From contig NC_086097.1 of the NCBI RefSeq assembly GCF_963921235.1, positions 6,076,001-6,140,000 of the forward strand: DNA of 64,000 bases, in the 5' to 3' direction. Below the pieces are notes generated by a model, which had not been told where the DNA came from, did no database searches, and saw only the letters and a list, made by a program, of their open reading frames with translations. Positions within the stretch are counted from its first letter, which is position 1; each line of letters starts with the position of its first letter. The DNA comes from Mobula hypostoma (Eukaryota). A program made the translations under genes and the position numbers. Shown here in pieces: positions 2,650 to 62,409 of this stretch.

Positions 2650-3220
2650 GTAGGTGAAACAAATGTTCAGCTTTCTGTCATTGGTTACCTGAGAAAGATG
2701 TTACAACTTAATAAAACATTGGCTAGTTTGCATTCAGAGTATCTTATCTGCAGTTCTGGTCTCCAAAACGTGGGAAATGTTACTGAGTTGCAGGTAGTAC
2801 GGAGGATTTTTACCAAAACGTGGCTTTGATTGGAGCATTTTACTTATAAAGAAAACTTAAAGAATGGTTGTTTTCTTTAGAATGGTGATCTGATGAAGTT
2901 GTAGAAAACTCTGAGCAGAACAGAAAAGATAGATGGTAAAAACTTATTTTTTTCCACTATGATGGGGGCTTCCAACACAAAACAGCAGGTCGAAGTTAAT
3001 GCACACAAAATACTGAGGAACTCAGCAGGTCAAGCAGCATCTATGGAAATGAACAGGTGGTCGATGTTTCAGGCTGAGACTCTTCTTCAAGACTTCGAAG
3101 TTTAGTGTTGGGAACTTCTGAGAGAATCTGAAGGAGTTATTTTTCACACTGGGAATGGCTGAACTCTGGAAAGCACTGCTGGAAAAGGCGGTAGAAGCAG
3201 ATATTCTCACAATATTTAAC
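2650..3220 (+). repeat. Old CR1 3' fragment interrupted by a degenerate Penelope-like pLTR piece (~2972-3095)
   Basis: Degenerate CR1 C-terminal coding sequence; the pLTR piece has a decayed hammerhead at ~3059-3094. Confidence 0.6.
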
Positions 3221-3412: not shown

Positions 3413-4128
3413 ACCACAAATTTGAGAAAATCTGCAGATGCTGGAAATCTAAACAAGACACACAAAATGCTGGAGGAACTCAGCAGGCAAGGACACTTCT
3501 ATGGAAAAGAGTACAGTCGACGTTTCAGGCCGAGATCCTTCATCAGGACTGGAAAAAAAGATGAGAGGTCAGAGTAAGAAGATGAGGGAGGGAAGGAAGA
3601 AATACAAGTGATAGGTGAGACTGGGAGGGCTGAAGTAAAGAGCTGTGAAGTTGATAGGTGAAAAAGATAAAGGGCTGGAGAAGGCGGAATCTACTAAGAG
3701 AGGACAGAAGACCATGGAAGAAAGGGAAGGGGGTGGAGCACCAGAGGGAGGTGATGGGTAGGCAGGGAAATAAGGTGAGAGAGGGTAAAGGGGATGGGAA
3801 ATGGTGAAGGAGCGGGAGGATGCCATTGCAGGAAGTTTGAGAAATCAGTGCTTATGCCATCAGGTTGGAGGCTACCCAGATGGAATATAAGGGGTTTCTC
3901 CTCCAACCTGAGTGTGGACTCATCTACTGCAGTAGAGGAAGCCATGGACTGAAATGTCAGAAAGGGAATTTGAAGTGGAATTAAAGTGGGTGGCCAACTA
4001 TGAGATTCCCCTTTCTCTGGTGGACAGAATGTAGGTACTCGGAGAAGTTGTCTCCCAACCTATGTCAGGTCTCACCAATATACTGGAGGCCACATTGGGA
4101 GCACCAGATACAGCAGATAGCGCCAACA
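3413..4128 (-). mobile_element. 5'-truncated Penelope-like (Neptune-type) element: GIY-YIG C-terminus plus pLTR
   Basis: Peptide LRLEEKPLIFHLGSLQPDGISTDFSNF; colinear with 47609-48278; hammerhead at 3515-3550. Confidence 0.85.
3515..3550 (-). ncRNA. Minimal type I hammerhead ribozyme motif, intact core
   Basis: Minus strand: (C)AGUC-CUGAUGA-AGGAUCUCGGCCU-GAAA-CGUC-GACU(G). Confidence 0.85.
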
Positions 4129-4219
4129 GACCTAGCTGGTGTGGCTCATTTGGCTGAAAAGTCCTGTTCTGAGATGTATCTCTGAATAAATGCATAGATA
4201 ATAAGCATCTACGTAGACT

Positions 4220-7117: not shown

Positions 7118-7252
7118 CAAACTACAGGAATTCTGCAGATGCTGGAAATTCAAGCAACACACATCAAAGTTGCTGGTGAACGCAGCAGGCCAGGCAGCAT
7201 CTCTAGGAAGAAGTACAGTCAACGTTTCAGGCCGAGACCCTTCGTCAGGACT
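7118..7252 (-). mobile_element. ~135-bp Penelope-like mini-insertion (hammerhead plus 3' tail only)
   Basis: Direct repeat ACTCAGAAGGAGG at 7105-7117 and 7250-7262; insert matches the pLTR end. Confidence 0.85.
7217..7252 (-). ncRNA. Minimal hammerhead motif with GUU triplet
   Basis: Minus strand: AGUC-CUGACGA-AGGGUCUCGGCCU-GAAA-CGUU-GACU. Confidence 0.8.
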
Positions 7253-31000: not shown

Positions 31001-31526
31001 TAAAACACAAGAAAGTCTGCGGATGTTGGAAATCCAGGTCAACACACGGTGGCATAACAGTTAGTGTGATGCTATTAGAATCTGGGTGCTGGATTCAGGA
31101 GTTTATTTCCACCGCTGTCAGTAAGAAAGTTTGTGCGTTCTTCTCGTGTGTATACAGGGTTTCCTCTGGATGCTCTGGTTTCCTCCCACAGTCCAAAGTT
31201 GTACTGGCTAGTAGGTTAACTGGTCATTGTAGATTTTCCAGTGATTACTCTAGGGTTAAGTAAGTGGGTTGCTGGGCGGTGTGGTTTGTTGGACTGGAAG
31301 GGCCTCTTCCGTGTTGTTTCTTTAAATGAAATAAAATAACTCAAAATGCTGGAGGAACTCAACGGGTCAGGCAGCATCTATGGAAATGAATGAACAGTCG
31401 ATGTTTTGGGCCAAGAGTCTCAATCAGGACTCCCCAGATGAAGAGTCTCAGCCTGAAATGTCAATTGTTTATTCATTTCCATAGATGCTGTCTGACCTGC
31501 TGAGTTCCTCTGGCATTTTGTGTGTC
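31001..31526. mobile_element. Older fold-back Penelope-like pLTR pair, interrupted by a V-SINE (~31048-31340)
   Basis: Diverged inverted arms ~31342-31430 and ~31433-31520 with decayed hammerheads; tail piece at 31001-31047; V-domain at ~31157-31198. Confidence 0.75.
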
Positions 31527-47370: not shown

Positions 47371-47608
47371 GGAAGTAAAAGAGAAGGTCAAATCCTGAAG
47401 TTACTCTCCAGTTCAGAGCGATTCCTGAAAAAAGTTTTTGATGGAGCTCACAAGGTAAAGGAAAGCTTCACACTTACATTTATATGGATGTTACAAACCA
47501 ATGAGTGAGTGTTGAAATGCTTTCAGATGTGAAGCATATAACACAGCCAAACGAAACATCATTACTCTGGGGCCAAAGTGCAAAACACAGTATCAAAAGT
47601 CACACACA

Positions 47609-48278
47609 TCAAAGTTGCTGGTGAACGCAGCAGGACAGGCAGCATCTCTAGGAAGAGGTACAGTCAACGTTTCGGGCTGAGACCCTTCGTCAGGACTAAC
47701 TGAAGGAAGAGTTAGTAAGAGATTTGAAAGTGGGAGGGGTAGGGGGAGATCCAAAATGATAGGAGAAGACAGGAGGGGGAGGGATGGAGCCAAGAGCTGG
47801 ACAGGTGACTGGCAAAAGGGATATGAGAGGATCATGGCACAGGAGGCCCAGAGAGAAGGAAAAGGGGGAGGGGGGAAAAACCCAGAGGATGGGCAAGGGG
47901 TATAGTCAGAGGGACAAAGGGAGAAAAAGGAGAGAGAGAAAAAGAATGTGTGTGTATATAAATAAATAACGGATGGGGTACGAGGGGGAGGTGGGGCTTT
48001 AGCAGAAGCTTGAGAAGTCAATGTTCATGCCATCAGGTTGGAGGCTACCCAGATGGAGTATAAGGTGTTGTTCCTCCAACCTGAGTGTGGCTTCATCTTT
48101 ATGGTAGAGGTGGTCGTGGATAGACATATCAGAATGGGAATGGGACATGGAATTAAAATGTGTGGCCACTGGGAGATCCTGCTTTCTCTGGTGGACAGAG
48201 CATAGGTGTTCAGCGTAACGATCTCCCAGTCTGTGTTGGGTCTCTCCAATATACAGAAGGCCACATCGGGAGCACCAG
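47609..48278 (-). mobile_element. 5'-truncated Penelope-like (Neptune-type) element
   Basis: IWCSRCGLLYIGETQHRLGDRYAEH..PVATHFN..LRLEEQHLILHLGSLQPDGMN (GIY-YIG). 17-bp duplication ATCAAAAGTCACACACA at 47592-47608 and 48279-48295. Confidence 0.92.
47662..47697 (-). ncRNA. Minimal hammerhead motif
   Basis: Minus strand: AGUC-CUGACGA-AGGGUCUCAGCCC-GAAA-CGUU-GACU. Confidence 0.8.
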
Positions 48279-48589
48279 ATCAAAAGTCACACACAGTACA
48301 AAGCTCACATAGCACATACAAGATAACAAGCACATGAATGACAGCAGTTCAGTACAGTCTCCCAAAAAAATTATAGTCCAAGACCCCGAGTCCATGAATG
48401 TTGCAGCAGTCTGCAGTCGACACAATACAGGTTGCTTTTTGCTGAGATCATTTTTGTTTTGTCAGCCTCTCAAGTGGATCCATAGCTGCTGTGCACACAC
48501 ATCACAGACAAAACTAGGCCCTCACTCACTGCCCCTGTAGTGCTAGAAACTACAAATTAAAAATTTTTACTCAAACAGACCAAAGAGTC

Positions 48590-48867
48590 TTGATTTTCCA
48601 GCATCTGCAGATTTCCTCGTGTTCGTGTTTTTAATTTCACTACTGCGAAGCCTGTTCTGGTGATGCCTACACTGAAGAAGTTTAAATCTTCTCTTCGACA
48701 GGAGTTCAGTGAAACCATCTCTTACTGCTCCCCATCTGTAATTTCTTCGACTCTTCAACTTTTCGAAGCCCTGACGAAGGGTCTCGGCCTGAAACGTTGA
48801 CTGTACCTCTCCCTAGAGATGCTGCCTGGCCTGCTGCGTTCACCAGCAACTTTTATGTGTGTTGCTT
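48590..48867 (+). mobile_element. 278-bp permuted Penelope-like mini-element with a hammerhead motif (48767-48802)
   Basis: Duplication AGACCAAAGAGTC / AGATCAAAGAGTC at 48577-48589 and 48868-48880. The insert starts with the sequence that follows its own end in other copies. Confidence 0.85.
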
Positions 48868-48994
48868 AGATCAAAGAGTCACATTGATGGAGTTACATAA
48901 GGAAGAAAGGGAAGAGGCTTGAAGGGAGCTCATATGCTTACACATTCTGGCAGACAAAGGGGCTCGCTTCTGCATTACCGTTTGTAATGTAATA

Positions 48995-49147
48995 CGGGTC
49001 GACCTTCACTAATCCGGCACCACTGGCACCTGAGGAGTGCCGGATTAGTGAAAATGCCGAATTACAGAAGGATCACATTAAGCATAATCAGTGCCGGATT
49101 ATCTAGGAACCGGTTTATAGGTAGTCGGATTAGTGAAGGTCGACCTT
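48995..49147. mobile_element. 153-bp MITE, Tigger/pogo-like
   Basis: 20-bp perfect inverted repeat GGTCGACCTTCACTAATCCG (48997-49016 and 49126-49145); TA on both sides; internal GTGCCGGATTA repeats. Confidence 0.85.
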
Positions 49148-50536
49148 TACCAAGAGAAGTACAATCTGTAGTACTTGCTGTTTCTGAGTATGTAAAGCAA
49201 GCAAACTTCACAAGTAGACTGCAACAAACACACAAAGTATAAATAAGGAGGAGTGATTTAAATCAATAAAAAAGTGTTTGCAAGGTTACAGCCTTGAGAC
49301 TATTGATTCTAAACAACTCTCAGTAATTATGCACTTGATGAACTTTTCTTAAAATCAATATCCCCTTGCTGTGCGTTAAGATAGATTTTCATCTTATTGT
49401 ACGGAAAAAGTATTTCTGTCACCGAGTACAGGTTTCTGTGCAATTACGGTTGCATTGTTTGCTGTAGGAATGACTGAATATCTCCCTTCGCACATTAAAT
49501 CATCTCAGAACCTACTGTAAAGCGAATGCACTAACCTCTACCCGCCAAAGTCGGTAAGGAGTTTGTACATGTTCCTGTACATTCAACCATGTAGGTTTCC
49601 TCTGGGTGCTCTAATTTCCTTCCACGTTTCAAAGGCCCACCGTTAGTGAGTTGGGGACATGCTCTCTTTGTTTTGGAGGCATGGCAACACTTGCCGTCCA
49701 CCCCCAGCATAATGATCACTAATTTGATTTGACATGAAATACACATTTCACTGCATGTACCGGTGTACATGTGATCAATAGAGCCAATCTTTATCATTAG
49801 GTATGCAAGACTTCCTTGTAGCTTAAGACCATAAGACATAGGAGCAGACTTAGGCTATCGGGCTGATCCTTCTACCCACTCCCCAGCCTTCTCCCAATAA
49901 CCTTTGTCGCCCTGGCGAAACAAGAACCTATCAATCTCTGCCTTAAATACACCCAAGAAGCTGGCCTCCACAGCAGCCAATTCTCATTTTATTACCCTCT
50001 GGCAACAGAAGTTTCTCCGCATCTCTGTTTTGAAAGGATGCCCCTCTATCCTGAGCTGTGCCCTCTTGTCCTAGACTCTGCCACCATGGGAAACATCCCT
50101 TCCACATCTACTCTGTGTAGGCCTTTCAACATTTGAAATGTTTCAAAGAGAACTCCCTCATACATTTAAATTCATGTGAGTATAGACCCAGAGCCATCAA
50201 ACATTGATAACCCTTCCATTCCCGCAATCATCCTTGTAAAACTCTTCTGAACCCTCTCCAATGGCAGCACAAATTTGTGACAATGAGGAGCCCAAAAACT
50301 GTTTACAATACTCAAGCTGAGGCCTCACCAGTACCTTATAAAGCCTCAGATCAGATCCCTGCTCTTGTATTCTAGACATATTGAAATGAATGCTAACACT
50401 GCATTTGCCTTCCTCACCACGACTCACCCTGCAAGTTAACCTTCAGGGTGTGTTGCTCAAAGACTTCCGACTCTGTCTGCATCTCAAATATTTGGATTTT
50501 CTCCTCATTTAGGTAATAGGCTGCACATTTATTTCC

Positions 50537-61691: not shown

Positions 61692-62375
61692 AAATACGAG
61701 GAATTCTGCAGATGCTGGAAATTCAAGCAACACACATCAAAGTTGCTGGAGAACGCAGCAGGCCAGGCAGCATCTCTAGGAAGAGGTACAGTCAACGTTT
61801 CGGGCCAAGACCCTTCGTCAGGACTAACTGAAGGAAGAGCTAGTGAGAGATTTGAAAGTGGGAGGGGGAGATCCAAAATGATAGGAGAAGACAGGAGGGG
61901 GAGGGATGGAGCCAAGAGCTGGACGGCTGATTGGCAAAGGGGATATGAGAGGATCATGGGACAGGAGGCCCAGGGAGAAGGAAAGGGGGGGGACCTAGAG
62001 GATGGGCAAGGGGTATAGTGAGAGGGACAGAGGGAGAAAAAGGAGGGAGAGAGAGAAAGAATGTGTGTATATAAATAAATAATGGATGGGGTACGAGGGG
62101 GAGGTGGGGCATTAGCGGAAGGTAGAGAAGTCAATGTTCATGCCATCAGGTTGGAGGCTACCCAGACGGAATATAAGGTGTTGTTCCTCCAACCTGAGTG
62201 TGGCTTCATCTTTACAGTAGAGGAGGCCGTGGATAGACATATCAGAATAGGAATGGGATGTGGAATTAAAATGTGTGGCCCCTGGGAGATCCTGCTTTCT
62301 CTGGCAGACAGAGTGTAGGTGTTCAGCAAAACGATCTCCCAGTCTGCGAACATTGACTTCTCTAACTTCCGCTAA
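61692..62375 (-). mobile_element. 5'-truncated Penelope-like element with a short inverted cap
   Basis: RRLGDRFAEH..ATHFNS..LRLEEQHLIFRLGSLQPDGMNIDFS; hammerhead at 61790-61825; 62348-62375 is the reverse complement of 62112-62139. Confidence 0.9.
61790..61825 (-). ncRNA. Minimal hammerhead motif
   Basis: Minus strand: AGUC-CUGACGA-AGGGUCUUGGCCC-GAAA-CGUU-GACU. Confidence 0.8.
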
Positions 62376-62409
62376 AAATCGAGGCCTAGGGTGATTCACC
62401 TGTGACAGC

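Follow-up and report, generated by a model that had tools for sequence, protein, structure and literature searches.

How does the beginning of a retroelement come to lie in a genome as one exact unit with its parts in the wrong order? The question is raised by an insert of 278 bp (positions 48590-48867, GC content 0.46) in the window, the whole stretch of 64,000 nucleotides of Mobula hypostoma DNA analysed here. It consists of one unit, the first 276 nt of a Penelope-like element (PLE) of Neptune/Nematis type, in circularly permuted order.

Structure of the permuted insert

Positions within the element were numbered on the family, with 48767 as +1. Besides the window, we used contigs of four public sequencing runs (X1, X2 and X5, DNA; X17, guessed to be RNA) out of 24 candidate runs. 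The locus reads as follows.

48577-48589, + strand: left target-site duplication, 13 bp (AGACCAAAGAGTC), within a contig with 0 differences in runs X1 and X2
48590-48623, + strand: PLE "tail" (part B), family about +100 to +133, natively 3' of GTTGCTT; from other window copies and loose contig ends
48624-48662, + strand: probable parental 5' leader, separating the tail from the start codon; from contigs of other loci
48663-48766, + strand: probable first 104 nt of the PLE ORF (34 codons plus 2 nt); from an anchored fit to relatives and multi-copy depth
48663-48800, + strand: chimeric frame of 45 codons from the ORF start into the hammerhead; stop resting on a minority letter, no homologue found
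48766-48767, + strand: new joint, ORF nt 104 to family +1 (5' edge of hammerhead helix I); a family contig of X2 leaves at 48766
48767-48802, + strand: minimal type I hammerhead (motif according to PMC4209133), core CUGACGA / GAAA intact, predicted cut between 48798 and 48799
48803-48867, + strand: remaining pLTR, ending at +101, of the "tailless" 3'-end class; from window copies and loose ends
48868-48880, + strand: right target-site duplication, 13 bp with 1 difference (AGATCAAAGAGTC); in an X5 contig covering 48850-48990

Re-reading the sequence bore out the coordinates, the 278-bp length and the 12/13 duplication given in an earlier note on this DNA. The flanking 13-bp repeats agree at 12 of 13 positions, and matches of this quality or better were obtained for 36 of the 12,737,700 position pairs of the window at a spacing of 200-399. 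The two ends of the insert overlap by TT, so that the unit amounts to 276 nt (the overlap is 3 nt if the C shared with the duplication is counted), and the earlier claim that circularised ends would restore the pLTR also holds, the insert being a one-unit permutation with an end overlap of 2-3 nt. The left junction is present without differences in a 218-bp contig of X1 and X2, and the right junction was recovered from X5, which carries the label of another organism, with 2 differences in 141 positions and only 18 letters inside the element, below our 31-letter bridging rule. An assembly artefact was ruled out by the left junction in two runs, the right junction in another organism and the duplication on both sides. 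No depth was obtained over the right flank in X1 and X2, where a filter effect is possible. In the public-run contigs the family majority differs from the insert at 48635, 48654, 48658, 48700, 48723 and 48811; with six or more such places listed, we consider the insert to be old. Its surroundings are themselves rich in repeats: the left-flank stretch 48353-48421 reaches a summed depth of about 50,000 in X1, and a short MITE-like element, whose terminal inverted repeats have GGTCGACCTTCACTAATCCG-like arms (read by eye), lies to the right at about 48990-49150.

On the family numbering, part A of the insert corresponds to +1 to +101 and parts B and C together to +100 to +276. Contigs from the public runs give the native order as hammerhead/pLTR, tail, leader and ORF start (A-B-C), and the order in the insert is B-C-A. 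The stretch 48589-48623 matches the sequence that follows GTTGCTT in window copies 1433, 7252, 61825 and 3550, and loose contig ends before 48589 read the end of the pLTR in all four public runs. Contigs of other loci (X1, X2 and X5) continue from the tail into the leader over 48597-48695 with 12 differences. Part A (48767-48867) matches the other window copies at 69-96%, and many loose contig ends fall at 48865 and 48867. Part C (48624-48766) has no other match within the 64-kb window and is multi-copy in the public runs; the middle of about 135 nt that had been described as seen nowhere else in the window is thus indeed without a second copy there, although its length is 143 nt and it is repeated elsewhere.

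Summed depth in X1, which is not equivalent to copy number, was 11-19 over unique flank, 85,000-212,000 over part C and 4-13 million over part A; across X1 and X2, depth over the ORF start was 65,000-212,000. Part C is evidently a repeat, and far less abundant than part A. Over the ORF start, depth fell to 0.40 in X1, 0.41 in X2 and 0.35 in X5 in the final bin ahead of the joint, and this drop in the DNA runs indicates that most copies of C do not continue into A; the value in X17 was 0.86, where it is little informative. One family contig of X2 agrees up to 48766 and diverges right after it. The internal joint between 48766 and 48767 was bridged by none of 32 pieces (the 8 longest per run in four runs), a sample in which a minority family of tens to hundreds of copies could hide. 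Joints from the tail to the start of the hammerhead were seen in the DNA runs from several tail positions (48614-48623 to 48770, in up to 11 contigs, the intervening letters being unread), and varied head-to-tail joins near +1 are routine in this PLE family. Run X17 had no depth over the unique flanks and its contigs carry the family letters at 48654, 48658 and 48723, so it says nothing on expression; one of its contigs (depth 96) joins leader and ORF start on opposite strands, at 48627/48739.

The ATG at 48663 starts the peptide quoted in the earlier note, and the frame comprises 45 codons as stated there. Its stop at 48798-48800 needs a T at a site where about 70% of the contig depth has C; the length of the peptide is therefore accidental. 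A search with the 45-aa frame returned two candidates, neither at E 0.01, the 34-aa piece before the joint had 0 matches among 1.84 billion representatives, and matches of the peptide in the Atlas were all under 0.8. With its stop provided by a minority letter and no homologue, the 45-codon frame was rejected as a gene, and probably is none. Scans with DNA patterns gave 0 loci in metagenome contigs, viral contigs and prokaryote genomes. The 34 residues encoded before the joint were also aligned to the N-terminus of full-length elements, a comparison the earlier note had proposed for the 45-aa peptide. An unanchored profile search scored -1.1, below many shuffles. When the K-T-R motif, present in 25 of 37 full-length relatives, was used as an anchor, the peptide fitted best 6 residues upstream of it, with its Met 39 residues before the motif; in most of the 25 relatives a Met stands 35-40 residues ahead of K-T-R. 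This anchored fit was equalled by 13 of 2000 shuffles, and in 3 of the 25 proteins it came out top among about 900 windows. Part C therefore probably represents the leader and ORF start of the PLE, with moderate support. The earlier description of the insert as pLTR plus ORF start in permuted order is supported by the public-run contigs, the peptide fit and the boundaries of the window copies.

The parent family, its boundaries and its hammerhead

A census of the window with a sequence profile gave 16 hits, 13 of them with a hammerhead; three hits consisting of tail only were set aside, and boundaries were read by eye. A GIY-YIG piece (47999-48283, Pfam score 18.1 versus a cut-off of 22.6) precedes the copy at 47697 by about 300 nt, and the layout at 61825 is equal. 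The GIY-YIG piece of the window shares 74-87% identity with proteins assigned by name to Mobula and Hypanus rays, and full-length relatives carry RVT_1 together with a GIY-YIG domain at the C-terminus, the domains of the parent ORF being deduced through these homologues. A CX2-5CxxC linker precedes the endonuclease in 4 of 5 ray proteins and in 2 of 3 full-length relatives tried; this linker is a mark of Neptune and Nematis PLEs (PMC8557442). Three 5'-truncated PLE 3' ends, each a GIY-YIG remnant followed by the 3' UTR and pLTR, were found on the - strand at 47597-48304, 61693-62378 and 3419-4169.

Eight of the 13 hammerhead copies continue into a 3' UTR, five begin at most 3 nt from +1 and none begins at the cut site. 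The five copies starting at +1 are the solo copies 3094 and 7252, the two arms of an inverted pair (31431/31434) and the present insert. The solo pLTR insertions occupy 7120-7252 (-), with a 13-bp duplication, and 2998-3094 (-), with one of about 10 bp; one of them is tailed and the other tailless. Part A, taken alone, resembles such an ordinary solo insertion. At the 3' side, the 13 copies fall into two classes, ending at about +95 to +105 without a tail (n=7, the insert included) or at about +130 to +136 with a tail (n=6). Two head-to-head inverted pLTR pairs are present in the window, at 1268-1566 and 31341-31525; in the latter, the arms meet at the 5' edge of the hammerhead, and a further repeat (about 31048-31340) interrupts the left arm, whose tail continues at 31047-31004. 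TTCGA stands directly before +1 both in solo copy 3094 (3095-3099, -, in target DNA) and in the insert (48762-48766, +, in the ORF), which may be chance.

The initiator consensus is YYANWYY, and with its A placed at +1 it is matched by 7 of 8 intact copies; the pyrimidine fraction upstream of +1 is 0.64-0.86. A pyrimidine-rich tract ending in AG at the hammerhead start was noted at 47698-47727 (-) and in seven other copies, with TACTAAC upstream in copy 47697. Judged by its letters, +1 resembles both an initiator and a 3' splice site.

The hammerhead of the insert has a G-U at the base of stem II and a mismatch in stem I; the single mismatch recorded earlier was confirmed as C-A. Among the 13 window copies, one other has C in the mismatch column, and it is the joint end of the inverted pair. 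Rfam gave 0 matches in the window at the gathering score. Across the 13 hammerhead copies 86.5% of cells were paired, with 0 compensatory changes and no excess over shuffles, and energy folding gave the hammerhead shape in one of four copies, which was not the insert. In PMC4209133, a single minimal hammerhead motif did not cleave. The 5' edge of helix I, where the new joint is placed, is 32 nt upstream of the predicted cut; since the two positions differ, formation of the joint by hammerhead cleavage and ligation was rejected.

Origin of the permuted unit

We propose, with a probability of about 0.55, that the insert is an old and dead composite insertion made by the enzyme of the parent PLE, with a linear RNA covering the 5' end of the element as template. 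The PLE RNA would start at +1, the A of AGTCC, as is suggested by the clustering of copy starts at +1 and the initiator match there. The endonuclease would cut the target and reverse transcription would begin internally at about +101, as in the solo pLTR copies. The reverse transcriptase would then run off the RNA 5' end at +1 and jump without homology to +276 (ORF nt 104), on the same or on a second RNA, the landing site probably being the 3' end of a broken or prematurely ended RNA, and would copy back to +100 before stopping. On the same RNA, the stop would fall where the enzyme meets its own hybrid, giving exactly one unit and no circle. With a second RNA, it would be luck that the ends abut; by our own estimate, abutment within 2-3 nt has a chance of about 2% (6 of 276 positions), to be held against the thousands of copies screened. 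We infer where copying started, that it jumped and why it stopped; neither hammerhead cleavage nor a circle is needed for the insert's structure.

The joint at +1 coincides with the usual 5' boundary of the family and was counted in favour of a template jump, although this boundary could instead mark a splice acceptor. In an anole PLE the tail is bounded by two internal start sites, and hammerhead mutants still insert (PMC11167929); the two 3'-end classes of the window fit such sites and were counted in favour of an internal start near +101. In about 30% of D. virilis Penelope copies, a full-length copy stands in tandem with one truncated at the 5' end (PMC2377424). The R2 reverse transcriptase jumps between templates without base-pairing in vitro; the same source adds that jumping is possibly unneeded in vivo and that human L1 chimeras arise from RNA ligation (PMC8857657).

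The same arrangement would result if a near full-length pLTR-ORF-pLTR copy had been inserted and had later lost about 3 kb by DNA deletion. Retroelements often suffer internal deletions, and the insert is old: six of its sites depart from the family majority, and its right junction occurs in a second organism. We nevertheless hold this to be distinctly unlikely: it needs both a 5' truncation that abuts the 3' end and a deletion that ends at +1, where four other window copies begin, and no microhomology is evident at the joint (read in one contig). Less probable still is a back-spliced circle, in which splicing would link a donor at the ORF start with the acceptor-like AG at +1/+2, the resulting circle being copied once round. 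The pyrimidine-rich stretch ending in AG before TCC in 8 of 8 intact copies and the TACTAAC upstream in copy 47697 speak for it, as does the D. virilis Penelope intron, which reaches up to the 5' end of helix I (PMC4209133). However, the AG is retained in the insert, which would require a donor exon with AG as its last letters, and the sole informative family contig departs after 48766; moreover, solo copy 3094 also begins with AG, which there lies outside its duplication.

A circular template could also have come from a low-copy, non-autonomous family, that is, a young retrozyme whose master locus would hold tandem 276-nt units carrying the joint. Dimeric hammerhead cleavage and ligation would yield a circle, and the PLE reverse transcriptase would copy it once round from +101 and stop at its own start. 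This reading, which we regard as rather unlikely, accounts directly for the exact one-unit length, and it draws on two precedents: circular PLE templates were proposed in PMC4209133, and 10.64898/2026.07.22.740005 derives retrozymes from PLE pLTRs, has them leave monomers and lists one chondrichthyan with them. The earlier note had called the insert a retrozyme-like monomer, and at this locus the label finds no support. The two arrays in the window are unrelated and no tandem array is present at the locus, a tandem array being defined in 10.64898/2026.07.22.740005 as at least two consecutive hammerhead-bearing units, and the middle part has no second copy in 64 kb. The circular fold behaves like shuffled sequence (z -0.44, 52 of 150 shuffles as stable; linear fold, z 0.04), whereas retrozyme circles are described as highly self-paired in PMC7229834 and PMC7761336, a test that is weakened by the mutations of this copy. 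Furthermore, helix I is damaged, the alignment of most ORF-start copies breaks off at the joint and, the joint being off the cut site, a master that carries it would first have to arise by a template jump. In more general form, the 276-nt unit may recur as an RNA, namely as a PLE 5'-end transcript, short or circular, copied once round from the internal start by the PLE reverse transcriptase, which we consider possible but doubtful. If true, this reading would supply genomic evidence for the circular PLE template put forward in 2014, and the locus would capture the birth of a retrozyme in a vertebrate.

Comparison with known Penelope-like elements and retrozymes

The components of the insert and the general tandem habit of PLEs are already known. 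Literature searches of partial coverage turned up no PLE monomer described as exactly permuted, and the chondrichthyan retrozyme list of 10.64898/2026.07.22.740005 might contain the 276-nt unit. How PLEs form tandems, and which role hammerheads or RNA circles have in it, is a question taken up in PMC2377424, PMC4209133 and PMC11167929. Insertions of this permuted type record the start, jump and stop points of copying; one old copy cannot separate template jumping from circular templates, but a census of permuted copies in this family-rich genome could.

With the partial-tandem, tailed insertions of endonuclease-bearing PLEs of Neptune/Nematis type (PMC8557442, PMC2377424, PMC11167929), the insert shares the minimal hammerhead in a pLTR about 300 nt behind the GIY-YIG ORF, the optional tail of 30-40 bp, the two 3'-end classes and a long duplication. 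As in PLE partial tandems, the downstream copy is complete to the 5' end and the truncated copy lies upstream. Unlike in those, however, the upstream segment begins at ORF nt 104 and not at the 3' end of the element, and it stops where the downstream segment started, which leaves a single permuted unit of 276 nt.

The hammerhead is like the minimal ones of metazoan PLEs (PMC4209133) in its core boxes, the bulged base before helix II, the palindromic positions 15.2-16.2 and the 4-bp helix I, and differs from them in the helix I mismatch and in the G-U that replaces the conserved G10.1-C11.1 pair. The insert also resembles the non-LTR retrozymes of animals (PMC7229834, PMC7761336, 10.64898/2026.07.22.740005) in size (150-450 bp), GC content (46%, where less than 50% is the criterion), type I hammerhead, duplication of more than 4 bp and origin from a PLE pLTR. 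In contrast to these, it is a single unit outside any tandem, with a minimal, damaged hammerhead and no stable rod-like fold, and while non-LTR retrozymes have no protein-coding region, the insert retains a remnant of one, the 34 codons assigned to the start of the PLE ORF.
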